A stretch of 64,000 nt of DNA from NCBI GenBank assembly GCA_000004695.1, contig CM000150.2, forward strand, positions 1,472,001 to 1,536,000. The letters run 5' to 3'. A program made the translations under genes and the position numbers. This document shows, piece by piece, positions 3,254 to 54,501 of this stretch. Within the stretch, counting starts at the first letter, position 1; every line of letters begins with the position of its first letter. Below the pieces are notes generated by a model that was given only the letters and a program-made list of their open reading frames with translations, was not told where the DNA came from and made no database searches. The stretch comes from Dictyostelium discoideum. Taxonomy: Eukaryota.

Positions 3254-6148
<2,895 letters not shown>

Positions 6149-6644
6149 TTTTATCTATCTACATGTGTGTGTTATCTTTTATTACATAATAAAATAAAAA
6201 AATGATGTGAAAAGAAAAAATAAAAAAAAAAAAAAAAAACTAAAATAAAATAAAATGAAATCTGAAAATAAAAAAAAAAAAATAAAAAGGTTATAAATTA
6301 AACGAATTTTTAAAAAAAAAAAAAAATAAAAAAAAAAATTAAAAAATTGCATCATGATTAAAATAAGTTTTTTTTTTTTGTTTTTTTAACACAATCCCAA
6401 ATGTTTTGAAAATGTTGTAATTGAAAATTTTTATATAGGAAAAAGTAAAAAAAATCATTACCAGAGTGTTAATTTTTAATCATTTTTTTATTTTTTTTTT
6501 GGCTGACTACCGCCATTTTTTTTTTTTTTCTCTACTCAAAATTATAAAATTTATTATTAATTTATATTTTTTAAAAATAAAATACAACCAAAATATAATT
6601 ATAAATTTATATTTTATTTTTTTTCTTTAAATTTAAATAAAAAA

Positions 6645-6854
6645 GGGGGTGAGGCGCACTCTCGTAAATCTCTGAAGTTGTGCAATACAGAGCGAATGCG
6701 TAGAGGTCGAATGATGCAAGCACCAAACATATGACCTCACCTCGAAGAAAAATAAGTTTAATCGAATATGCACATCAACGTGTGATGGCAGAAAGAGATT
6801 AAGCTTTTTAGAACAGATACTACACATGATCAAAGCGAGACGCTTCAAGAAGGT
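6645..6854 (-). ncRNA. U2: U2 spliceosomal snRNA gene, copy 1
   Basis: The reverse complement contains GATCATGTGTAGTATCTGTTCT (the U2 branch-point-interaction region GAUCAAGUGUAGUAUCUGUUCU), a Sm-site-like ATTTTTCTTCGAGG, and the 3' domain ACGCATTCGCTCTGTATTGCA...GTGCGCCTCACCCCC, which matches U2 ...ACGCAUCGACCUGGUAUUGCA...GGUGCACCC. It is followed by a T-run. The 5' and 3' ends are estimated by alignment to metazoan U2, give or take about 5 nt. Confidence 0.8.
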
Positions 6855-6908
6855 ACCTTTTCAAAATGAAAAAACTACTCTTTTGTATTTAAATATATAA
6901 TTTTTTAT

Positions 6909-6915
6909 TTATGGG
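6909..6915 (-). promoter_or_regulatory. DUSE-like snRNA upstream element (CCCATAA) about 57 bp upstream of the minus-strand U2 copy
   Basis: The reverse complement of ttatggg at 6909-6915 is CCCATAA. It is placed symmetrically to the element upstream of the + copy. Dictyostelium snRNA genes are known to carry a conserved upstream element near -60. Confidence 0.5.
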
Positions 6916-6957
6916 TTTTTTTCTTTTCGTGAAAATAGTGAAGTTAAAAATTTATGA

Positions 6958-6999
<42 letters not shown>

Positions 7000-7134
7000 T
7001 AAAATATTTTTAGAAAATTTTCTTAACTCAAATCATGGTGTTATTAATAATATTAAATGATGTATAAAAAAAAACTTTATTTTTATTTTTATTTTGAATA
7101 TTGTTTTTTTTTTTTTTTCAAGAATTCATGAGGA

Positions 7135-7141
7135 CCCATAA
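7135..7141 (+). promoter_or_regulatory. DUSE-like snRNA upstream element (gaCCCATAAaaa) about 60 bp upstream of the + U2 copy
   Basis: cccataa at 7135-7141 sits in a slightly GC-richer patch (gaattcatgaggacccataaaaa) within the AT-rich spacer. Confidence 0.5.
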
Positions 7142-7197
7142 AAATAAAAAGTTAATACTTTTAAATAAAAAAAGAAATAATTTCATTTTGAAAAGGT

Positions 7198-7407
7198 ACC
7201 TTCTTGAAGCGTCTCGCTTTGATCATGTGTAGTATCTGTTCTAGAAAGCTTAATCTCTTTCTGCCATCACACGTTGATGTGCATATTCGATTAAACTTAT
7301 TTTTCTTCGAGGTGAGGTCATATGTTTGGTGCTTGCATCATTCGACCTCTACGCATTCGCTCTGTATTGCACAACTTCAGAGATTTACGAGAGTGCGCCT
7401 CACCCCC
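7198..7407 (+). ncRNA. U2: U2 spliceosomal snRNA gene, copy 2, a perfect inverted duplicate of copy 1
   Basis: The same sequence as 6645..6854 lies on the + strand. The inverted repeat spans ~6621-6868 and 7184-7437. The two genes are transcribed divergently from a ~340-bp spacer. Confidence 0.8.
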
Positions 7408-7678
7408 TTTTTTTATTTAAATTTAAAGAAAAAAAAAAAAAAGTAATAATTTAATAACAAAATTTAAGAAATAAAATTAAATAAAAAATTAAATTTATTT
7501 ATTTATTTATTTATACATGAATAATAAAAATAAGAAAGGGAGATAAGAACCTGTTTTATTTATTTTTTATTTTTATTTTTTTTTTTTATTTTTTTTTTTA
7601 TTTAATCAATGTAAATGGATATATTGACTAGAGTCATCGTTTTAATTTATAATTTAATATTTATTATTATTTTTAATT

Positions 7679-8043
7679 TTATAAAAGCATTTTATTTGCA
7701 CACCAAATTCTTTGTAAAATATCATTTTGTACATCATTTAAAGAACTCCAAAGTTCTCTTTGAATTGCAGGTAAACCATTAACTTCTTTTCTTTCACAAG
7801 CGATTAATAGGTTGTTTAAGATTGCGATAGTTTCTTCAGACAATTCAGAACCTGCACTATATTGAGAATGTTGTTCATTTATATCATTTACTAATTTACT
7901 AAGTTGTGCTTGTGATTTTGAAAAACTATCTTGTAAAATATATAATAAAAATAATGATACACGTGTTTCAATTAAAATAAATGGATATAATGACATACTA
8001 ACTGATGATGGTAATATTGTATTATTATTTATATTATTATTTA

Positions 8044-8080
<37 letters not shown>

Positions 8081-8888
8081 GTTATTAATATCATTAAAAA
8101 AATTATTATGATTACTATTATTATTAATTTGATCAAAACTACTATTAGTTGTTGTATTTAGTAATGATAATTGATTCATTCTAGATTCTAATGGTTGTGT
8201 TGTTTCACCTGCAATATTTACAATTAAATCTAAATAATCACAAGCACCCTTATAATCCCATTCCATAATTTTACAATATGCTGCTTCTTTTAATGAGTTG
8301 ATTGCACTTATTGGACTTTCTGTCCTTTGAATTTCTGCTGCCTTTTGAAAATATTCTGCACCTTCTTCTAATTTATTTAATCTTTTTAATATTGATGCCA
8401 TTTCAAAATATAATGTACCCATTATACTAAATCTTTTATAATTTTGATAAATCTTTTTTTTTATAAAAGTAAATAAAAAAAATAAAAAAATTAATATTAA
8501 TAAATATATATATATATAATAATGATGTTTTTTTTTTTTTAAAATTTACTTTTATAGCTAATAAATAACAATTAATTGCTTCAGGTATATTCTCTTCAAA
8601 TGATATTATTTCAGATTCATTTGTTGAAATTTCATTTTCCCATATTAAATAACCAGCATCAATATAACATGAGGCTTCTGCTGATGATGAAGCTTTAATT
8701 GCTTGTTCACATCTACCAATTGATAGACAACAAAATGCTGCATATATATTATTACCTTCACGTTTAAATGAATTCATTACTTGTGTATATTGATCAACTG
8801 CTTCTGAATAATTTGGTTTCCTCATTGGAAACTTTTTTTTTTTTAATTTTTGTGATATTAATTTATAAGAATCTATTAAATGACTCAT
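7679..8888 (-). CDS. Soluble NSF attachment protein (SNAP) family, TPR-like, probably the gamma-SNAP-type paralogue
   Basis: There are two exons, complement(8550..8888) and complement(7679..8452), with a 97-bp intron at 8453..8549 (GTAAAT donor, AG acceptor, phase 0). The joined product reads ...DAGYLIWENE..EAINCYLLAIK|IYQNYKRFSIMGTLYFEMASILKRLNKLEEGAEYFQKAAEI... This aligns with alpha-SNAP [44 protein letters not shown]. A poly-N insertion lies in the middle. Confidence 0.65.
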
Positions 8889-9368: not shown

Positions 9369-11750
9369 ATGAATTTTAAAATTATATATTTTATAATTTT
9401 ATCAATAATAGTTTCATATTTTTCAAAGATTGGTATTGATTATTATTTTAGTAGTGATGAAATTAAAGAGAGATATTCATTATTTGAATATGTTGTAAAT
9501 GATCAAATAATAAAATTTGGTAGTAATAGAGATAGAGATCTTTTTGATAGATCACATTATAATGAAGAAGTATTTTATAATATAAAGATATCAAAAGAAG
9601 TTCAAGATGCACTTAGATATGGTAAACCAATCGTATCATTAGAGTCTACAATTATTTCACATGGTATGCCATTCCCACAGAATTATGAAACTGCATTGGA
9701 GGTTGAATCAATCGTTAGATCATATGGTGTTATTCCAGCAACTATTGCAATTTTAAATGGTACAATTCATATTGGATTAACCGAGAAAGAGATTCACTAT
9801 TTAGCAACGGTTGGTAAGGATGCAATTAAAACGTCACGTCGTGACATTGCCATGGTGACATCGATGGGTAAGACAGGATCTACCACGGTTTCAGCAACTA
9901 TTTTATTCTCAAATTTAGTGGGTATCAAAGTGTTTGTCACTGGTGGATTGGGTGGTGTTCATAGGGGTGCCGAAACAAGTTTAGATGTGAGTGCAGATTT
10001 AACAGAGTTGGGTAAGAATGGTGTTATGGTAGTTTCAGCAGGTGTAAAGAGTATATTGGATATTGGAAAGACTTTGGAATATTTAGAGACTCAAGGTGTT
10101 ACAGTGGTGACTTTTGGTTCTGATGAATTCCCAGCATTCTTTACAAAACATTCAGGTGTAAAGACACCAAATCGTTTGGATACCGTTGACCAATGTGCAA
10201 AACTTCTCTACTCAAATCAGTTACTTCAATTAAAGAGTGGCATGGTCGTTGCCGTGCCACCACGTGATAATGAACATTCTGAGCTCATTGACCGTGCAAT
10301 CAAAGAATCAATTGAACAATCAAAAGTAGATGGTATTTTGGGTAAAGATATTACACCCTATCTCTTAAAGAAAGTAAATGAAAAAACTGGTGGTAAATCA
10401 TTAGAATCAAATATTGAATTGGTTAAAAACAATGCTAGAATTGGTTCACAAATTTCTAAACATTATTATAATTTATTAAAAAATAAACAATCACCAACTA
10501 GTAGCACTACTACCATTAAAGGTGATGAATTAGTTTTCAACTATTTTGACCAACGAGTAAATACTTTTCTTAGAAATTATTTTAAAACATTATCAGCAGA
10601 GACTTTGTTATTAAATGGTCCAAATAAATTAAAAGGTTTAAATGGACCAAAACCAAATAAACAATTGGCTGATAATCATATTGAGTATGATATTGTGGTG
10701 GTTGGTGGTGCAGTGATCGATATGATTTCTCATCCATTTAAAGAGAGTGGTTTCCAAATGGAAACTTCAAATCCGGGTGCTATTTCAATTAAAATGGGTG
10801 GCGTTGGTCGTAATGTTGCAGAGGTATTATCAAGATTACAAATGAATTCATTGTTTATTAGTTTGGTTGGTGACGATGTTCACTCTGGTCTATTGATGGA
10901 ATCATTTCAAAAAATGAATTTATCATCCAATGGTGTTGGTATCAAGGTTGGTAGTAAAACTGCAATTTACAATGCAATTATGAATGATCGTGGTGATTTG
11001 GCAGTTGCAATAGCTCAAATGGATATTTTCGATGAGATTACACCTTCCTACATTTCAAAATTTGATTTAACCTCAAGTAAACTTTTAGTTTTCGATGGTA
11101 ATATTCCAATTGAATCAATGACTTATTTAGCTCAACTATCAAGATCAAAAGGTATTAAACTTTGGTTCGAACCAACAAGTGTCTATAAATCTTCAAAAAT
11201 CGTTGAATCATTCATTTTATCTTCAATTACCTATATTTCACCAAATAGAGATGAATTAATTAAAATTTCAAATGAAATTATTAAAAAAGGTTTAATTAAA
11301 TTTGAAAATATTATAAATAATGATATAAATGGTAATTAATTAAAATTTATTTATTTATTTAGATTTATTTATTATATATTTAATTTTTATTAATATTATT
11401 TATTTATTTATTTAGATTTAGAAAATATTAAAAAGCATAGTATAATTTTAATTGAATCTGGTATAAAATATATTATTACAAAGATGGGATCAAAAGGAGT
11501 ATTATTAGCTTATAAAAAAGATGATGGAGAATTTAAATTTGAATTATTTTCAGCACCAGAAGTACCAGATAACAAGATTGTAGATGTAACAGGTGCTGGT
11601 GATAGTTTAGTTGGTTGTACAATTTATTCAATATTACTTGGTCATAATTTAACAACTGCAATCCCCCAATATGGTACCCCTTGTGCAAAAGAAAGTTTAT
11701 TATCAACAAATCCAGTTTCACCAAATATTAAAATTTCTTTATTTAAATAA
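9369..11750 (+). CDS. Bifunctional pseudouridine-5'-phosphate glycosidase (PsuG/IndA-like) fused to a PfkB-family carbohydrate (pseudouridine) kinase
   Basis: Exon 1 is 9369..11331 and exon 2 is 11416..11750, with an 84-bp intron (GTAATT...TTTAG, phase 1). The N-terminal domain reads GKPIVSLESTIISHGMPFPQN...VFVTGGLGGVHRGAETSLDVSADL, the PsuG signature. The C-terminal domain reads DIVVVGGAVIDM...GGVGRNVA...DVTGAGDSLVG, the PfkB kinase signature. The first ~60 aa are hydrophobic and have no homology, so the start is uncertain. Confidence 0.7.
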
Positions 11751-12029: not shown

Positions 12030-12670
12030 AAAAACAAATTCACATTCCAAGTCAATTGAGTTACTTAAAAGTTTTTGAAAATTCTTTCTATGTAAAACTT
12101 AAACCTTTATTATTAATAGTGCATTAATGTTTTGGACTTGTAGGACTTGGTGTTGGAGTTGGTGTTGGTGTTAGTGTTGGAGTTGGTGTTGAATTAATTG
12201 GACAAGCATACATTGAACTCATTGAACATTTATATATTGGAACTAATGAATTAATTCTGATACAGTGATTGGTATTTAAAATAGCTGATGGTTCACAGTA
12301 AAAGTCTAATTTAACTGTACCATTTTTACTACCATTATATGATAAGGAAACACCATTTGAAATTTGAGTAATTTCACTTTTTTCAATATAAGTCATTGGT
12401 AAACAGTTTCATTTTTATAAAAATAAAGGCAACTTTGAACATTGGTTAAATTGTCCGTTTCTTTAAACTATTGCATTTTGGACAATATCCACAAATATTG
12501 AAAAAAAGGAAGAGCATTAATTCTCCATAAGGAATGTCGGAGATTGATCGTGTATAATAATAATCTCCTTTTTTAGTCAATGGTGATAAATCGATTAAAC
12601 CTTGAGCTGTGTTTAATTTACAAACATTATTATTACAATATCCAAATGAAAAATTTAATAAATAACTTAA
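12030..12670 (-). pseudogene. MRH-domain secreted-protein paralogue, copy A. It is degenerate, with a frameshifted N-terminal half and a premature stop.
   Basis: The ORF 12124..12396 encodes only the C-terminal half of the domain plus a TP-linker and then stops. Upstream in another frame lies a signal-peptide/LIDLSPL segment at ~12430-12670. The 3' region at 12030-12124 still matches the C-terminal Cys-module of copy B. Confidence 0.55.
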
Positions 12671-13130
12671 AGTTAAAAAAATAATAATTTATTCATTTTT
12701 TTTATATTTATTGAATGATGAAGAAAAAAAAATTGTATAAATTGATAATTAAAATACTTAAAAATTTATTTAAAAAAAGATTAAATAAAAAATTAATTAA
12801 AATTCTGTTTTTTAAACACTTACTCCAATTGGTTTTTTCGATTGTGATAGTTTTTTTTTTTTTTTTAATTTTGACTAAAAAAGGTAAGGTATTTTTGTGA
12901 ATCATTATTAATATTAAATTATATTACATCTTTGTTTTTGTTCACTTGGGTTTTTTATTGTTTTTGTTTTTTTTTTTTTTTTTTTATTTTTAAAAAATAT
13001 AATAAACATTTATTTACTGATAAAAATTGTTCATAAACACCAAATAAAAGAAAAAAAAAAATACCAAAGTAAACAAAAAAAAAAGATGTAGTATAATTAA
13101 TAAATAATTTTAAATTATTTATTTATTTAT

Positions 13131-13859
13131 TTAAAAAACAAATTCACATTCCACGCCAATTGAATTACATAAAATTTTTTGAGAATTCTTTTTATAATTA
13201 CAAGTAATTGAACTATTTGATGTAAAACTTAAACCTTCATTATTAATAATACATTTATGTTTTAGACCTTCTGGTGTTGGTGTTGAGCTTAAGGTTGGTG
13301 TTGGTGTTGAGCTTAAGGTTGGTGTTGGTGTTGAGGTTGGTGTTGAGGTTGTAGTTGGATTAATTGGACAAGCATGCATTGAATACATTGAACATTGATA
13401 TAATGGAACATATGTATTAATTCTAATACAATCATAGATGTTTAAAGTTTTAGCGGATGGATCGCAGTATATGTCTAATTGAGTTGTACCATTTTTACCA
13501 CCATAATATGATAAAGAAACACCATTTGAAATTTGAGTAATTTCACTTTTATCAGTATAACCCATTGGTGGAGCAGTACCATCTTGTGGATAAAAAGCAC
13601 AACTTTGAGCATTGGTTAAATAGTTGTTACTTCCTAAACTATTACATCTTTGTGTATATCCACAAATATTGAAAAATAGTGAGAATGATTTTGGTGGATA
13701 ATCAATGAATGATCCTGAAAAATAACCACCATTTGGTAAAGTCAATGGTGATAAATCAATTAGACCTTGCTTGGTGTTTAATTTACACACATTATTACTA
13801 TAACCAAATGAAAAATTAAATAAATAACCTATAGTTAAAAAAATAATTATTTTATTCAT
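13131..13859 (-). CDS. Secreted protein with a single MRH (mannose-6-phosphate receptor homology)-like domain, a Thr/Pro/Ser mucin-like linker and a small C-terminal Cys-module. This is the intact reference copy of a tandem family.
   Basis: It encodes 242 aa. There is a signal peptide MNKIIIFLTIGYLFNFSFG. The Cys pattern C..LIDLSPL..Y...Y.F.ICGY..C.....SCAFY...G.....L.YYGG..G....IYCD......C.RI.....Y.C.MYSM.AC matches the MRH-domain consensus. The linker is PTTTSTPTSTPTPTLSSTPTPTLSSTPTP. Confidence 0.55.
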   Translation of the reverse strand: MNKIIIFLTIGYLFNFSFGYSNNVCKLNTKQGLIDLSPLTLPNGGYFSGSFIDYPPKSFSLFFNICGYTQRCNSLGSNNYLTNAQSCAFYPQDGTAPPMGYTDKSEITQISNGVSLSYYGGKNGTTQLDIYCDPSAKTLNIYDCIRINTYVPLYQCSMYSMHACPINPTTTSTPTSTPTPTLSSTPTPTLSSTPTPEGLKHKCIINNEGLSFTSNSSITCNYKKNSQKILCNSIGVECEFVF

Positions 13860-13940
13860 TTTTTTAATATTTATTGGGTGATGAAGAAAAAAAAAGTAAA
13901 GAAAAAAAAAAAGAAAAAAATAAAAGTTTAAAAAAAAAAA

Positions 13941-13964: not shown

Positions 13965-14640
13965 GGAAAAAATTAAAAAAAAAGAAAATTATTGTTTTAA
14001 TTTAATTCTTAAGAAAATTTTTTTGAAATTTTTATGGGTGGTGGATATTGGAAAAAAAGGAAAGAAGTGGATGAAAATATATTAAAAAATAAATAGAAAT
14101 AATAAAAAATAAAAAATGAAAAAAAGATTAAATAAACAATTAAAATTCATAAAAAATAAATTAAAAAAGATTAAATAATTAATTAAATAATATAATAATT
14201 AAATATTATTATTATTATTTTTCTCTTTAATTATTTTTTTGTTCACTTGTTATTATTTTCGTGTTTGGTTGTAATTATTTTTGTTTGAGGGGTGATTATC
14301 ATTTTTGTGTTTGGTTAAAATTATTGGAGGGTTATATATATATTTTTTTTTATTTTTTTTATTTTTTTATTTTTTTAAATCACTTTTCAAAAAAATTTAT
14401 TAAAATAAATAGAAATTAATAAAATAATATAAAAAAATTATTAAAAAAGATTTTTTTTTTTTTTTTTCTTTAAATTGATTGTGTTTAATTGGTATTTTTG
14501 ATTGTGAATAGTTTTTTTTTTTTTTTGTTTTAAAAATTATTAAAATAAAAAATAAAAAAAAAATAAAAAAGATAAAATAAAAAAATTAAAATCCAAAAAA
14601 AGATTAAAATAAATATTTAAAATTAAATAATATTTTATTT

Positions 14641-14830: not shown

Positions 14831-15040
14831 TTGGAAATTTTTCTGACATTTTATTTGAAATGAAACTAATTTTATAAATTAATAGAAAAAAAAAAAAATA
14901 AAAAAGATTAAAAAAAAATTAAAATCCTTTAAAAAATAAAAAAAAAAAAGACTAAATGAATAATTAATTATTTATTATTTTTATTATATTTCTCTTGGTT
15001 GTCATTATTTTGTTTTTAAACGAATGGCTGAGAATTTGGA

Positions 15041-15541
15041 TTAATTGGGGCAAGCATACATTGAATACATTGAACATTTAAATACTGGAACTACTGAATT
15101 AATTCTAATACAGTCATAGATGTTTAAACTTTTAGAGGATGGATCACAGAGTATGTCTAATTGAGTTACACCAGTATTACTACCATAATATGATAAAGAA
15201 ACACCATTTGAAATTTGAGTAATTTCACTTTTATCAGTATAACCCATTGGTGGAGCAGTACCATCTTGTGGATAAAAAGCACAACTTTGAGCATTGGTAA
15301 AAAAGTTGTTACCTCCTAAACTATTACATTTCTTTGCATATCCACAAATATTGAAAAGTAGCGAGAATGATTTTGGTGGATAATCAAAGAATGATCCTGC
15401 ATAGTAACCACCATATGGTAAGGTTAATGGTGATAAATCAATTAAACCTTGAGCTGTGTTCAATTGACAAACATGATTACTATAACCAAATGAAAAATTT
15501 AACAAATAGCTAAAAGTTAAAAAAATAATTATTTTATTCAT
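15041..15541 (-). CDS. Secreted MRH-like-domain protein, a short paralogue of 166 aa with signal peptide plus domain only
   Basis: The ORF is intact. It is ~80% identical to copy B through the domain and ends right after ...YACPN, with no TP-linker or C-terminal module. Confidence 0.5.
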   Translation of the reverse strand: MNKIIIFLTFSYLLNFSFGYSNHVCQLNTAQGLIDLSPLTLPYGGYYAGSFFDYPPKSFSLLFNICGYAKKCNSLGGNNFFTNAQSCAFYPQDGTAPPMGYTDKSEITQISNGVSLSYYGSNTGVTQLDILCDPSSKSLNIYDCIRINSVVPVFKCSMYSMYACPN

Positions 15542-15685
15542 TTTATAATATTTAAAAATGTATTTTTTTTATTGAATAATGAAGAAAAAGAAAAGAATAA
15601 ATAAGAAAAAAAAATAGAAAAAAAAAAAGAAAAAAGAAAAAAAAATAGAAAAAAAAAAATAAAAAAAAAAATAAAAAATATATAT

Positions 15686-16239: not shown

Positions 16240-17057
16240 TCATGAATCCAGTACTATTAAAACATTCCAATTTAATATTTTCAAAAGCATTTGAACAAGT
16301 TTTATCTGTAAATAAAAACAGTTGAATTTCAAAAGTATTTTGAAATCTGTTGGTAAAATTGAAATTCTTTCAAAATCACAAAGATTCATACAATTTCCTA
16401 CTGTTACATTATAACCACTTGTTGGGCATAGATTACCAAAAAATTTGAAACTATTATAAATAATATTTGAAGGATTTGAGGTTGGATTTGGAGAAGGGGT
16501 AAAAGTTTGAGTTTGAGTTTGAGTTGGAGTAGTAGAAGGGGTAATAGTTGGAGAAGAAGTAGGTGAGATAATTGGACAAGCATACATTGAAATCATTGAG
16601 CATCTATATAAAGGAACTACTCTATTTATTCTAATACAATCATAGATGTTCAATGATGTGGCGTGGGTCACAATAAATTTTAAATTGAGCTGTACCATTT
16701 TTACCACCATAATATGATAATGAAACACCGTTTTTAATTTCAAACAGTTCACTTTTGTCAATATAACCCATTGGTGGAGCAGTGTCATCATTTTGATAAA
16801 ATGCACAACTTTCTGCGTTGGTGTTTTTAGTATTATTACCTAAGGAATTACATCTCGTTGCATATCCACAAATATTGAAAAGTAGTGAGAATGATTTTGG
16901 TGGATAATCAAAGAATGATCCAGCATAATAACCACCATTTGGTAGAGTCAATGGTGATAAATCAATCAATCCACCAATGTTTGCAAACATTATTATCATA
17001 CCCAAAAGAATTATTTACAAAGTAAAAAAATGTAATAATAATAAATAATTTAAACAT
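16240..17057 (-). pseudogene. MRH-family paralogue, copy E, carrying at least two frameshifts
   Basis: The signal-peptide ATG is at 17057 (MFKLFIIITFFYFVNNSFGYDNNVCK). The first frameshift is a ~7-nt deletion near 16985 in the CKLNT.QGLIDLSPL region. The second frameshift is near 16680, which splits the domain between ORFs 16640..17005 and 16240..16806. The TP/TQ linker and C-terminal module are present in the second frame. Confidence 0.6.
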
Positions 17058-35960: not shown

Positions 35961-35998
35961 TAGAAATCAAAATAATGTTAAATTGAATAAATTTGTTG

Positions 35999-36009
35999 GG
36001 AATCGAACC
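35999..36009 (-). promoter_or_regulatory. ex-B box (downstream B-box-like GGTTCGATTCC) ~33 bp 3' of the tRNA-Trp gene
   Basis: The minus strand reads ...TCAAAGGTTCGATTCCCAACAA. Dictyostelium tRNA genes commonly carry an external B box in the 3' flank. Confidence 0.5.
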
Positions 36010-36041
36010 TTTGATTTTAGAAAGTCTCTTAAAAAAATGAC

Positions 36042-36128
36042 AGACCCCTCAGGGAGTTGAACCCTGGACCAACTGCTAACTTCTAACGTTTTGGAGACAA
36101 TTACAATAAACCACTATGCTAAGGAGTC
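36042..36128 (-). tRNA. trnW-CCA: tRNA-Trp (anticodon CCA) with a 13-nt intron
   Basis: The reverse complement is GACTCCTTAGCATAGTGGTTTATTGTAATTGTCTCCAAAACGTTAGAAGTTAGCAGTTGGTCCAGGGTTCAACTCCCTGAGGGGTCT. The acceptor pairs GACTCCT with AGGGGTC, with one G-U. The D-loop is AGTGG. The anticodon stem pairs ATTGT with GCAGT, and the loop is C-U-CCA-A-[intron AACGTTAGAAGTT = plus 36078..36090]-A. The T-arm is CAGGG-TTCAACT-CCCTG. The discriminator is T, followed by a T7 terminator. Confidence 0.75.
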
Positions 36129-36400
36129 TTTGAAAATTCACTGGATGAAACACTTTGTTAACACCTCATTTTTTTCGGTGAAACACTATGTTATGGAGTC
36201 ATTAATTTTTATGTCAATAACATGCTGGAATTTAGCTGGCGAAAATTAAAATTGAAAACCAATTGGATGACTCACTTTCCTAAGCCCTCATTTTTTTGGG
36301 TGAAACACTATGTTAAGAAGTCATTACTTTTTATGTCAATAATATGCTGAAATTAAGCTGGCAAATATTAATATTATACCTAGTTATAATAATTACAAAA
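36129..36400 (-). repeat. About 2.3 tandem copies of a ~117-bp module immediately upstream of tRNA-Trp. Each module is the 5'-flank plus a degenerate copy of the first ~20 nt of the tRNA.
   Basis: Repeating blocks (plus strand) read gtgaaacactatgtta(t/a)g(g/a)agtcatta.tttttatgtcaataa(c/t)atgctg(g/a)aatt(t/a)agctggc(g/a)aaa(a/t)attaa.attgaaaaccaattggatga.(a/t)cactttg.taa(c/g).cctcatttttttgg. The subsequence acactatgtta.ggagtc mimics the tRNA 5' end ccactatgctaaggagtc. Confidence 0.55.
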
Positions 36401-36789
36401 AACAAATAGTTTTTTTTTTTAAAAAAAGAGGTATAAAAAAATTATATGGATTAATAATAATAAATTTTTTTGAATAACAATTAAATATTATTATTTTGGC
36501 GAATGCACATCACTTATTGAATTTCTTTTTTTATTTTTTATTTTTTTATATATACCCCATTGTAAAGCTTAATAAAGTAAAAAATATTAAATCCATTTAT
36601 CTAATTAATAGATGAAGTAAAAAAAAATTATATATCGTATAGTGATTTTTTAGTGTTCTATCTATACTAATAAATATTAATAATGAATATTAAAAATAAT
36701 TAAAATTAAATCATTGTTAAAAAAAAAAAAAAAATGAATTTAATCGTTCTGTTTTTTTTTTTTTAATTTTTATTTTCTCCAGCTAAATT

Positions 36790-38298: not shown

Positions 38299-39350
38299 CA
38301 AGAAAAACAAGAAAAGTAGCATGAACAACAACCACAGCAACATGTAAATTAAAAAATAGCAAAACAAAATATTAGTAACTTTTTATAATATTAAAATGAA
38401 TAAAATCTGAATGTATGGTTTGAAATCTTATTTATATAAACTCTCAAGTAAATTTTTTAAAAAAAAAATACCAGAAAGGCAGAGGAAAACGAATAAAACT
38501 TTGGAGGTTAGGTTTTTTTTTTTTAAATATAAAATCAGAAGTAATTGTGATGGTAAAGATAATAAATCATTTGTTCAAAATATTCACATTATTAAGTTTT
38601 ATTTGATCTATTAAAACTATTTATCATTAATATTTTATTAAGCAATAATTATAAAAAAACAATCTTTTTTGATTTAAATATAGGTGAGAATTCTCATTTT
38701 ATCAAGTGGTTTTATATATGTTTTTTTATAAGATTAAATAATTAAATAATAAAATTATGAAATTAATTTTTTTTTTTTTTTTTTTTTTCAGCACATTGAC
38801 CCACGAAGGCTGAGTTTGAACAACAGAGGTCTTTTAAATTTTAATCTTGTTGGATTTTTTTTTTTTTTTAATATTGAATAATAAGTGTTTATCCATTAAA
38901 GCAAATAAACAATAACTAATAGTTTTAGTTATTCATTTTCTTTAATTTTAATATTCAAATAAGGAATTTTAATAGTGTAGTAACTAATTTTTATTATTAT
39001 TATTATTAATATTGTTATCTTTTTTTAAAATATCGAGTTTTTAGATATGTTAAATATTAAATAAATTAATTTAATAAATCAAATAATATGATTATAATTG
39101 ATTAGATGAAATGGTATGATTTGGAAGAATCAGTTGATTCTTGCAAGTTAATTATCTTAATAATAGTATTTGTTTAAGGAAATCGTTTGGGTCTTTAAAA
39201 TTGTTCTGATCTTTTGAAAGAGTTAATTTACATGTTTTTTTTTTTTTTTTTATATATAAATATATATTCTGGAAATCAAATTAATGTTAAATTGAATAAA
39301 TTTGTTGGGAATCGAACCTTTGATTTTAGAAAGTTTCTTAAAAAAATGAC

Positions 39351-39437
39351 AGACCCCTCAGGGAGTTGAACCCTGGACCAACTGCTAACTTCTAACGTTT
39401 TGGAGACAATTACAATAAACCACTATGCTAAGGAGTC
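39351..39437 (-). tRNA. trnW-CCA: tRNA-Trp (CCA), second copy, identical 87-nt gene with a 13-nt intron (39387..39399)
   Basis: It is identical in sequence to 36042..36128. It has the same 3' flank TGTCATTTTTTTAAGA(G/A)ACTTTCTAAAATCAAAGGTTCGATTCCCAACAAATTTATTCAATTTAACATTA. The ex-B box is at 39308..39318. Confidence 0.75.
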
Positions 39438-39904
39438 CTTGAAAAATCAATTGGATGAAACACTTTGCTAAGGCCTCAATTTTATTGGAAAACCCAAATT
39501 AATCAGAAAATTTCCAGATTTTTAACTTTTTAAAGTAAAATAAAAAATAGAAAGAAAATAAGATGAAAATTACAAACAACACCACAAATATTAAGCAACA
39601 CAAATGCCTACAAAAAATAAGCGAAATTGTGGATAAAACTCAAATAAAAAAAACAATTCAAATATGTCATCAACATCAATCACGAACCAGACGATAAAAT
39701 AAAAAAAGATTTAGAAAAAGTTTGGACAAAAAAGATGTTTAATCAAAAGTAATAATACAATTCAAAATTTGAAACAAAAAAAAAAAAAAAAAAAAAAAAA
39801 AAGTTAACTAACCCCTCTTTTAGAGACCCTGTAAAAAACTACAAATAAAATGAGATCAAGCAGGAGAAGCAACTAATAATTGCGTTATCCAATTCAAAAA
39901 AAAA

Positions 39905-40090
39905 AAAAAAAAAAAAGCCTCATTTTTTTGGAAACAAATACAATTACAATAAACCACTATGCTAAGGAGTCCTTGAAAACCAACTGGATGACACACTTTG
40001 CCAAGGTCTCATTTTTTGGGGTGAAACACTGTGCCAAGGAGTCATTACTTTTTATGTCAATAACATGCTGGAATCTAGCTGGCGAAAAAT
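39905..40090 (-). repeat. Module repeat plus a truncated tRNA-Trp 5' fragment (32 nt at 39940..39971), an orphan piece of the tRNA-Trp upstream repeat
   Basis: acaattacaataaaccactatgctaaggagtc is the reverse complement of the first 32 nt of tRNA-Trp. It is followed by the module cttgaaaaccaactggatgacacactttgccaaggtctcattttttggggtgaaacactgtgccaaggagtcattactttttatgtcaataacatgctggaatctagctggcgaaaaat. Confidence 0.55.
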
Positions 40091-40121
40091 AAAAAATAAA
40101 AAAAAACAGAATGATTACTTT

Positions 40122-40158
<37 letters not shown>

Positions 40159-49690: not shown

Positions 49691-54501
<4,811 letters not shown>

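Follow-up and report, generated by a model that had tools for sequence, protein, structure and literature searches.

Homogenised transcribed regions and side-specific promoters in a head-to-head pair of U2 snRNA genes of Dictyostelium discoideum

How do two U2 snRNA genes, placed head to head and only 339 bp apart, remain nearly identical when the sequences just outside them do not? The question is raised by chromosome 1 of Dictyostelium discoideum AX4, where positions ~1,478,645-1,479,407 hold a head-to-head pair of ordinary U2 snRNA genes. The pair lies within a stretch of 64,000 nucleotides, the whole of which was analysed and is here called the window; all coordinates below are window positions. 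Expression has reportedly been verified for 17 D. discoideum snRNA genes. The snRNA genes of this species number 17 (PMC11193728), and 18 “rnu” gene names are given for its snRNAs in the supplement of PMC3188802. These genes, the DUSE and the concerted evolution of snRNA genes are already published. Around the pair, three window ORFs exactly match the AX4 proteins DDB_G0268570, DDB_G0268140 and vwkA, which bears out Dictyostelium as the organism first guessed. The positions listed for DDB_G0268116 and DDB_G0268118 in the Sucgang et al. synteny table show that a window position equals the chromosome 1 position minus 1,472,000. Five of the eight large ORFs have no exact protein match, most likely because raw ORFs and annotated gene models do not coincide; for the 656-aa ORF at 9369-11339, the annotated product has 765 aa. 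An exact look-up of the 166-aa ORF at 15041-15541 returned no record.

The locus was compared with its syntenic sites in seven other assemblies, which were reached through homologues of DDB_G0268118: three of D. discoideum (L001, L006 and L007), two of D. cf. discoideum (L002 and L008), one of D. citrinum (L003) and one of D. firmibasis (L004). A divergent U2 pair flanked by the same neighbours is found in all seven (L001-L004 and L006-L008). Together with the window, eight assemblies and 16 U2 copies are thus available.

That both genes encode U2 is clear from the Rfam family RF00004 (cmscan, gathering score 46). The right copy matches at 7196-7403 on the plus strand (95.4 bits, E = 8e-18) and the left copy at 6649-6856 on the minus strand (91.1 bits, E = 8e-17), in both cases over model positions 1-192 of 192 and without truncation. 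The original prediction, made by reading the letters alone, had proposed two U2 genes transcribed away from each other, each with a branch-point sequence, an Sm site and a 3′ stem-loop. All of this is borne out: the full-length matches lie above the gathering score, one on each strand, their 5′ ends are turned towards each other across 339 bp, in an orientation for divergent transcription, and the three elements align to RF00004 in each arm. The 5′ ends are taken from the covariance-model alignment and are uncertain by about +/-3 nt, and the 3′ end is set at the close of the C-run. The features of the RNAs are as follows.

7196..7407, plus strand: U2 snRNA gene, right copy, ~208-212 nt (RF00004); identical to both L006 copies.
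6645..6856, minus strand: U2 snRNA gene, left copy, one base unlike the right copy (RF00004 and gapped alignment).
7229..7242, plus strand: GUAGUAUCUGUUCU, containing the branch-point box GUAGUA at 7229-7234 (direct reading); mirrored at 6810-6823 on the minus strand.
7299..7305, plus strand: Sm-site core AUUUUUC, aligned to the single-stranded consensus AUUUUUg; mirrored at 6747-6753 on the minus strand.
7366..7372, plus strand: AUUGCAC, loop of the 3′-terminal stem-loop IV, aligned to UUgCAcU in the model; mirrored at 6680-6686 on the minus strand.
6808, minus strand: the only substitution in the transcribed region (alignment); A in the left copy (T on the plus strand), G at 7244 in the right copy.

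The branch-point segment, with its left-copy GUAGUA at 6818-6823 (minus strand), corresponds in the alignment to GUGUAGUAUCUGUUCU, which is invariant in the RF00004 consensus, and is unchanged in 16/16 copies. The Sm site has the A-U5 core and lacks the flanking purines of the usual consensus. The stem-loop IV motif reads AUCGCAC in both copies of D. firmibasis. The alignment covers every helix in the model (stem-loops I, IIa, IIb, III and IV), with four non-standard pairs in the right copy and five in the left. These structure calls rest on the covariance-model alignment, which was preferred over the single-sequence minimum free energy fold; for the right copy the latter gives stem-loops IIa, IIb and III locally, together with non-canonical long-range pairs (z = -2.6). 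Sequence barely varies among the 16 copies. Both copies look functional and would, judging from sequence, be expressed: the GUAGUA box would pair with the intron branch site, and the Sm site and 3′ stem-loops would assemble the U2 snRNP. When JGI metagenome contigs were scanned for exact occurrences of GATCATGTGTAGTATCTGTTCTA, five contigs were returned, which proved unusable for a dictyostelid comparison; they carry U2 genes of unrelated eukaryotes, present as single copies with 27-57% G+C, different stems and no DUSE.

The two genes are embedded in a somewhat larger inverted repeat. A repeat search of the window gives 306-nt arms, 6605-6910 against 7142-7447, which are 92% complementary without gaps. 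Gapped alignment and direct reading narrow this to a near-identical core of 255 nt (6617-6871) against 256 nt (7181-7436), in which 254/256 positions agree. The inverted repeat had been described as exact; the repeat is there, but its arms are separated by the substitution at 6808/7244 and by a 1-nt indel in the T-run that directly follows the gene (6 T in one arm, 7 T in the other). Beyond the core, identity drops sharply: about 10 promoter differences are found from -45 to -16, and the 3′ flanks diverge from ~+242.

Between the arms lies a short spacer containing the presumptive promoters.

6857..7195, no strand: 339-bp spacer with two back-to-back promoters and a 36-nt T-run inside (direct reading and alignment).
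7134..7141, plus strand: DUSE ACCCATAA of the right copy, first base at -62 (pattern search).
6909..6916, minus strand: DUSE ACCCATAA of the left copy, first base at -60 (pattern search).
7160..7178, plus strand: A/T-rich, putatively TATA-like stretch TTTAAATAAAAAAAGAAAT of the right copy, -36 to -18.
6875-6893, minus strand: left counterpart of the TATA-like stretch, TTTAAATACAAAAGAGTAG (sequence reading).

In dictyostelids the DUSE, [AT]CCCA[AT]AA, lies ~60-63 nt upstream of ncRNA starts (PMC3188802, PMC7919456). The DUSE-like elements that the original prediction had placed upstream of each start fit this published motif and distance, at ~60 nt as measured from the model-derived (cmscan) 5′ ends. 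Across the window the motif is not enriched (19 sites against 20.0 +/- 3.8 expected), so that only its position and conservation carry weight. A further ACCCATAA site at 14032-14039 (minus strand) is probably due to chance, as nothing but low-complexity sequence and the beginning of a protein gene comes after it. The 9-mer ACCCATAAA is invariant in 16/16 copies from the eight assemblies. Its position never leaves the range -60 to -62, and no other such motif occurs in any spacer, although the spacers range from 301 to 1175 bp. Most promoter columns around it vary, with 20 of ~91 being invariant from -100 to -16. With its position fixed in 16 copies while spacer lengths vary four-fold, the DUSE has good comparative support as a promoter element whose distance is constrained. 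For the TATA-like stretch, of which only an AAAA..G core is kept across the 16 copies, the evidence is weak because the surrounding sequence has 14% G+C. L006 has exactly the AX4 spacer (100% identity), and in the two other D. discoideum assemblies the identity is 85%. Each U2 copy would use its own promoter, made of a DUSE ~60 nt upstream and an A/T-rich proximal region.

Which polymerase would read these promoters? Just past each gene lies a conserved flank.

7408..7436, plus strand: 3′ flank T(5-7)ATTTAAATTTAAAGAAAAAAAA, conserved in the 16 copies with small changes; mirrored at 6617-6644 on the minus strand.

Past the cmscan end, mean identity between genomes is 0.80 at +1 to +40 and 0.59 at +41 to +100, and the flank (T-run and ATTTAAATTTAAAG) is a candidate signal for 3′-end formation or termination. 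If the T-run served as a terminator, the pair could be transcribed by RNA polymerase III instead of II. A run of 5-7 T does follow the C-rich 3′ end in 16/16 copies, and in D. discoideum a DUSE stands upstream of Pol II as well as Pol III genes (PMC7919456). Against this, intergenic DNA of 14-18% G+C abounds in T-runs. Furthermore, D. discoideum U2 reportedly has a trimethylguanosine cap and U6 does not, and such a cap is the usual signature of Pol II. Transcription of the pair by Pol III is therefore unlikely.

The comparison of paralogues within and between genomes shows where the two genes are held alike. In every genome examined, differences between the two copies start at -16/-17 and at ~+240 to +245, which delimits a tract in each arm.

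7181..7436, plus strand: right arm of the homogenised tract, ~-15 to +241 (within-genome copy differences start outside it).
6617..6871, minus strand: left arm of the homogenised tract (gapped alignment and copy comparison).

A column was called concerted when it varies between genomes while both paralogues are identical within each genome. From -15 to +241 in seven genomes (259 columns), 229 columns are invariant, 9 are concerted and 2 are side-specific; from -100 to -16, a single column is concerted and 45 are side-specific (9:2 in the tract against 1:45 in the promoter, Fisher exact test, p = 6e-8). Thus the pair evolves in concert within sharp boundaries, its transcribed regions being homogenised and its promoters side-specific. 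In D. firmibasis, for instance, three changes (+A, U>C and C>U) are found in both copies, and the 3′ tails differ by genome (CCCC, CCCACCCC, CAACC, CAATCA or CATC). The transcribed region is so conserved that few sites inform on concerted evolution. There are also 19 private differences between paralogues in the seven genomes, many within homopolymer runs, part of which could be assembly errors. The right copy of L001 (D. discoideum) has three private substitutions, hence homogenisation is not instantaneous.

Could purifying selection alone account for this, with all U2 positions constrained and no exchange between the copies? U2 is one of the most conserved RNAs, and the 229/259 invariant tract columns are what such constraint would leave. 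The variable columns tell against it, since nine have the same state in both paralogues and two are side-specific; the shared changes fall, among other places, in loops and in the 3′ tail, which is terminal or not transcribed, and selection without exchange needs the same mutation twice per lineage. The spacer of L008, a D. cf. discoideum assembly (GCA_054859205.1), also points to arms that recombine. Relative to AX4 it aligns better as reverse complement (79%, score 206) than forward (61%, score 89), yet L008 is collinear with AX4 in gene order, in the left outer flank and in the first ~20 nt past each arm (the right outer flank, at 0.54 against 0.52, is too diverged to inform). In this single assembly the breakpoints of the inversion fall inside the arms, and the inverted spacer is consistent with a crossover between them. 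Selection acting alone is thus distinctly unlikely.

The preferred reading is that gene conversion would homogenise the segment from ~-15 to ~+241, i.e., the transcribed region and ~30 nt of 3′ flank, and that the promoters outside the tract would evolve independently. An occasional arm-to-arm crossover would flip the spacer, which would be harmless because both promoters are equivalent in this explanation. The boundaries at -15 and +241 are directly visible because the orthology of locus and promoters is still traceable, and the limits of conversion tracts can be read because the promoters retain orthology and the genes do not. The pair thus makes a clean natural example, in which these limits are readable within a few bases.

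A different view of the genes would make one or both of them a pseudogene, or a divergent and developmentally regulated “U2 variant”, instead of canonical U2. D. discoideum reportedly has U2 variants with an extra 5′ stem-loop, and the A at 6808 replaces a stem IIa G-C pair with an A.C mismatch, which cmscan flags in the left copy only and which accompanies a score 4.3 bits below that of the right copy. However, both copies match the whole model and have a DUSE at the canonical distance, so that a 5′ extension would not fit if the start lies ~60 nt from the DUSE. Their sequence is almost invariant across four species. The site equivalent to 6808 is G in all 14 copies of the seven other assemblies, including the left copy of L006, a D. 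discoideum assembly 99.79% identical to the window across 10.4 kb; the A thus belongs to the AX4 reference alone and is either a private mutation or a reference error. That it may be a reference error concerns anyone who tells the two copies apart by this base. A hairpin-like TTTCATTTTGAAA just 5′ of the start was considered as the 5′ stem-loop of a U2 variant and rejected, as it lies upstream of the DUSE-implied start and is not conserved in D. firmibasis. Altogether, a pseudogene or variant is very unlikely.

When did the pair arise? The arms, at 254/256, and the copies of several assemblies, which are 100% identical to each other, would suit a recent inverted duplication in D. discoideum, one of two explanations first suggested for the identity of the arms, the other being ongoing gene conversion. 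But D. citrinum and D. firmibasis have this divergent pair at the corresponding site, and there the protein encoded next to it shares only 95% and 91% identity, respectively, with that of D. discoideum. Just outside the arms, 45 side-specific promoter columns are common to several genomes, and the sharp boundary of identity falls at the same place in all of them. Independent insertions in the other species are opposed by the left-type and right-type promoter sequences that are shared. At the syntenic locus of D. purpureum, and at that locus only, cmscan and blastn (E <= 1e-3) found no U2; this interval is a synteny-block boundary (Sucgang et al. synteny table). As the syntenic pair is present in D. 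citrinum and D. firmibasis and absent at the D. purpureum site, the duplication is old and predates the divergence of these two species from D. discoideum. A recent duplication is thus highly improbable, and of the two explanations it is conversion that is favoured by side-specific promoters next to homogenised transcribed regions.

Finally, the two mechanically listed ORFs at 6633-6848 (minus strand) and 7204-7446 (plus strand), rightly set aside earlier as artefacts but of 71 and 80 aa and not 71 aa each, have practically no chance of encoding small proteins, as they begin in a eukaryotic genome with TTG, a start taken from the bacterial code, match no Pfam family at E <= 1, lie exactly over a strong structured-RNA match, and include one whose length is altered by a 1-nt indel, with no constraint seen.

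The best explanation, to which we give a probability of roughly 90%, is then a canonical U2 pair with its own DUSE promoters, which stems from an old duplication and whose arms are kept near-identical by recombination. One may go further, with a confidence that falls somewhat short of even odds, and suppose that the pair is a recombinationally active inverted repeat, which has persisted from a time before D. discoideum and D. firmibasis diverged, that its conversion tracts are limited by the loss of homology outside them, that the orientation of the spacer is polymorphic in wild isolates, and that the T-run with ATTTAAATTTAAAGA8 is an undescribed 3′-end signal of dictyostelid snRNAs. The pair itself is ordinary, and any Rfam-based annotation would detect both genes; U2 genes, the DUSE promoter and the concerted evolution of snRNA families are already well known from Dictyostelium or from eukaryotes at large.

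Compared with the Rfam U2 family and the U2 genes of D. discoideum, the GUAGUA box, the Sm core, stem-loops I-IV and the AUUGCAC of loop IV are all shared. Nothing essential differs from the usual U2: the 5′ end reads GUACCUUCUUG instead of AUCGCUUCUCG, the loop of stem I has 3 nt, and a C and not a G follows the Sm site. The promoters have the motif, the distance and the three consecutive C that mark the DUSE of Group 4 species (PMC3188802, PMC7919456), here as ACCCATAA at -60 and -62. Unlike Class I RNA genes, of which the TGTG box is an element (PMC7919456), the pair has no such box, and its two DUSE promoters stand back to back within one short spacer. Multi-copy snRNA genes generally evolve in concert (PMC4291461), an example being the tandem RNU2 array of primates (Pavelitz et al., 1995, 1999, cited in PMC4291461). 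As in that array, paralogues within a genome are closer than orthologues between genomes; in Dictyostelium, however, there are two copies, and they are inverted, so that exchange between them would also yield inversion. Plastid genomes have flip isomers, which arise through inversion by homologous recombination between inverted repeats. By analogy, the segment between the U2 genes may behave alike, as it lies between identical inverted arms and occurs in both orientations among related genomes; here, though, the arms are only ~255 nt long and are themselves genes, and the orientation differs between strains.

The whole window was scanned against Rfam 15 at the gathering threshold, which gave four matches. 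Two of them are U2 snRNA (RF00004), each covering model positions 1-192 of 192, while the remaining two are tRNA genes distant from the U2 pair. The features read from the RF00004 matches and their alignment are as follows:

7196-7403, plus strand: U2, right copy, 95.4 bits, E = 8e-18 (gathering score 46)
6649-6856, minus strand: U2, left copy, 91.1 bits, E = 8e-17 (gathering score 46)
7229-7234, right copy: branch-point box GUAGUA, within the GAUCA-N-GUGUAGUAUCUGUUCU segment
7299-7305, right copy: Sm core AUUUUUC
7366-7372, right copy: loop IV, AUUGCAC

The invariant GAUCA-N-GUGUAGUAUCUGUUCU segment is present, as are stem-loops I, IIa, IIb, III and IV. The original prediction, a U2 snRNA in each arm of an inverted repeat, is thus borne out by the covariance-model search that it proposed, with one full-length match per arm on opposite strands. 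The 5' ends face each other across a gap of 339 bp and transcription is therefore divergent, again as predicted. Two ORFs overlap the arms in a bacterial-code ORF listing; both start with TTG, and a Pfam search at E <= 1 gave no match for them. They are artefacts of that list, as had been supposed, but they measure 71 and 80 aa and are not a mirrored pair of 71 aa.

Positions 6300-7800 were also read directly. The repeat finder gives one long ungapped inverted repeat with arms of 306 nt (6605-6910 and 7142-7447, 92% complementary), and gapped alignment of the reverse-complemented left half with the right half gives a near-identical core (6617-6871 versus 7181-7436) between far more diverged flanks. 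The coordinates first proposed for the repeat are correct to within a few bases, and near-identity holds, but perfection does not (254/256, with one substitution and one indel). The indel is a 1-nt length change in the T-run after the C-rich 3' end. As for the substitution, in the RNA sense the left copy has A (6808) and the right copy G (7244), so that a stem IIa pair which is G-C on the right becomes A.C on the left, and this is the cause of the 4.3-bit difference in score. In L006, a D. discoideum assembly with AX4-identical proteins and 99.79% identity to the window over 10.4 kb (6 mismatches), both U2 copies carry G at this site, as do all other copies; the A is therefore private to the AX4 reference, through either mutation or an error of sequencing.

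Each of three D. discoideum AX4 proteins is matched exactly by a large ORF of the window: DDB_G0268570, DDB_G0268140 and vwkA, a kinase. In the synteny table that Sucgang et al. published in 2011, DDB_G0268116 is at chr1 1,479,679-1,480,888 and DDB_G0268118 starts at 1,481,369; these are the window ORFs at 7679-8888 and from 9369, so that the window begins at chr1 1,472,001 and the U2 pair is at ~1,478,645-1,479,407. Long (TTA)n/(TAA)n-type runs encoding poly-Asn within minus-strand ORFs (5640-5790 and 8020-8100) make up the bulk of the direct-repeat output near the pair.

Syntenic regions were fetched via the neighbour DDB_G0268118, a pseudouridine-metabolising enzyme, from assemblies of D. 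discoideum (L001, L006, L007), "D. cf. discoideum" (L002, L008), D. citrinum (L003), D. firmibasis (L004) and D. purpureum (L005). By cmscan and blastn, a divergent U2 pair lies between the same two neighbours in every assembly but that of D. purpureum, where no U2 was found within 22 kb at the syntenic locus. The neighbouring protein is 91% identical between D. discoideum and D. firmibasis, and the syntenic pair in the latter makes the duplication at least as old as the split of these two species. Recent duplication, one of the two explanations originally offered for the identity of the arms, is thus contradicted by the presence of the same pair at the syntenic site in D. citrinum and D. firmibasis. 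A boundary between D. discoideum/D. purpureum synteny blocks falls exactly in the U2 interval (Sucgang et al., 2011): DDB_G0268114 belongs to block 1982 and DDB_G0268116 to block 1170, the two blocks being on different D. purpureum scaffolds, and the interval between these genes holds the U2 pair and a 964-aa ORF (the gap from this ORF to DDB_G0268116 is 6149-7678). Upstream neighbours differ at the D. purpureum locus. The D. firmibasis spacer (L004 6607-7781) is 1175 bp long, versus 301-344 bp in D. discoideum and D. cf. discoideum, and its ~800 bp of more complex sequence have no Rfam match.

How, then, have the copies stayed alike? Within each genome, copy-to-copy differences begin at -16/-17 and at ~+240 to +245 from the model-derived 5' end, with 0-2 differences between these boundaries in most genomes. 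Alignment columns in seven genomes were classed as concerted (varying between genomes, paralogues identical within each), side-specific (common to at least two genomes) or private (one copy in one genome):

Alignment columns by class
-15 to +241: invariant 229, concerted 9, private 19, side-specific 2, mixed 0
-100 to -16: invariant 20, concerted 1, private 14, side-specific 45, mixed 11

The concerted to side-specific ratio is 9:2 in the first tract versus 1:45 in the second (p = 6e-8, Fisher's exact test). Purifying selection accounts for the invariant columns, but it leaves unexplained the genome-specific changes common to both copies: an extra A in stem-loop III, AUCGCAC in loop IV and a C>U seven nt downstream of the latter change in D. 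firmibasis, an extra A in stem-loop III in D. citrinum, and three substitutions in L008. The 3' tail likewise reads CCCC, CCCACCCC, CAACC, CAATCA or CATC depending on the genome, both copies being alike in most. Promoters, on the other hand, come in two types, left (…ACAAAAGAGTAGTTTTTT…) and right (…AAAAAAAGAAATAATTT…), which D. discoideum, D. cf. discoideum and D. citrinum have in common. Mean identity in the 3' flank (+1 to +40) is 0.86 for paralogues and 0.80 for orthologues; in the promoter (-52 to -13) it is 0.71 and 0.75. Judged from these alignments, the pattern is that expected from gene conversion limited to the region of retained homology, in agreement with the ongoing conversion originally suggested. 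The right copy of L001 (GCA_054859355.1; 7873-8081) departs from its partner, and from every other D. discoideum copy, by three substitutions of its own (AU>UC; A>U in stem-loop III) and by a shorter C-run at the 3' end; it may be either escaping homogenisation or an assembly error.

In L008 (GCA_054859205.1), the left-type promoter is on the copy adjoining DDB_G0268116 and the right-type on the other. Its spacer aligns to that of AX4 better as the reverse complement (79% identity, score 206.5) than in the same orientation (61%, score 89), whereas in each of the other assemblies of D. discoideum and D. cf. discoideum the spacer aligns better forward. Gene order is collinear, as are the left outer flank (0.72 vs 0.54) and the first ~20 nt past the 3' end of each arm; the right outer flank (0.54 vs 0.52) is too diverged to inform on orientation. 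Collinear flanks around an inverted spacer place the breakpoints inside the arms, which, in this one assembly, is the signature expected of a crossover between inverted repeats.

The spacers (301-1175 bp) are poorly conserved apart from ACCCATAAA, unchanged in 16 of 16 copies, always at -60 to -62, and with no second such motif on the strand concerned in any spacer. The upstream elements in the window are:

7134-7141, plus strand: DUSE (Dictyostelium upstream sequence element) ACCCATAA, right copy, first base at -62
6909-6916, minus strand: DUSE ACCCATAA, left copy, first base at -60
~7115-7120, plus strand: TTTC(A/C)A, from the alignment of 16 copies
~6929-6934, minus strand: TTTC(A/C)A, from the same alignment

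The predicted DUSE-like element is therefore present upstream of each copy. The window shows no enrichment of [AT]CCCA[AT]AA (19 sites versus 20.0 +/- 3.8 in shuffles); with the 8-mer at chance frequency, the evidence for the DUSE is positional and comparative. An A-rich core (AAAA..G) at ~-30 to -20 is likewise conserved, which is weak evidence at 14-18% G+C. The short TTTC(A/C)A at ~-78 to -73, some 12-14 nt upstream of the DUSE, is present in most of the 16 copies and could be a further promoter element or chance in A+T-rich DNA. Directly 3' of the U2 end, all copies carry T(5-7)ATTTAAATTTAAAGA(8), conserved above the sequence beyond (0.80 vs 0.59 between genomes); it may be a 3'-end formation signal, or its T-run a terminator, as far as A+T-rich DNA permits such a reading.

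Other repeats occur elsewhere in the window. Two identical intron-containing tRNA-Trp(CCA) genes (36041-36129 and 39350-39438, minus strand; Rfam 44.8 bits each; ARAGORN) each lie in one unit of a direct repeat (35963-36140 and 39272-39449; 178 nt, 98% identity, units 3309 bp apart). Between them sits an inverted repeat (36810-36898/36952-37040) with 89-nt arms, 93% complementary and 53 nt apart, and a further family of 183 nt is found at 36097-36279, 36219-36401 and 39940-40122. Segments 12152-12732, 13355-13873, 15036-15554 and 16559-16966, mutually 78-90% identical in secondary blastn matches, overlap ORFs 13131-13859 (242 aa) and 15041-15541 (166 aa), all on the minus strand, and suggest a small family of paralogous genes in tandem. 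G+C is 17-33% per 2-kb window; its maximum (0.33, at 52001-54000) lies inside a 1257-aa ORF (50728-54501), with extreme strand asymmetry (AT skew 0.50, GC skew -0.39) and trinucleotide-periodic repeats around 52872-53002.

Hinas and colleagues reportedly described the spliceosomal RNA genes of D. discoideum in 2006, U2 and several U2 variants among them, and that snRNA genes evolve in concert is textbook knowledge. The U2 pair is of a known kind and almost certainly annotated already. A later paper counts 17 snRNA genes in D. discoideum (PMC11193728), 18 "rnu" gene names are found in the supplement of PMC3188802, and Rfam-based snRNA annotation exists for D. firmibasis and D. giganteum. This analysis adds how old the pair is, where the homogenised tract begins and ends, that one isolate has the spacer inverted, and that the 6808 variant is private. 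The homogenised pair is in line with what generally holds for snRNA families (PMC4291461). The DUSE and its distance are already published: [AT]CCCA[AT]AA precedes Dictyostelium ncRNA genes by ~63 bp (PMC3188802) or ~60 nt (PMC7919456), it serves genes of Pol II as well as of Pol III, and all spliceosomal RNA genes are within the published set, with which the U2 pair agrees in both motif and distance.
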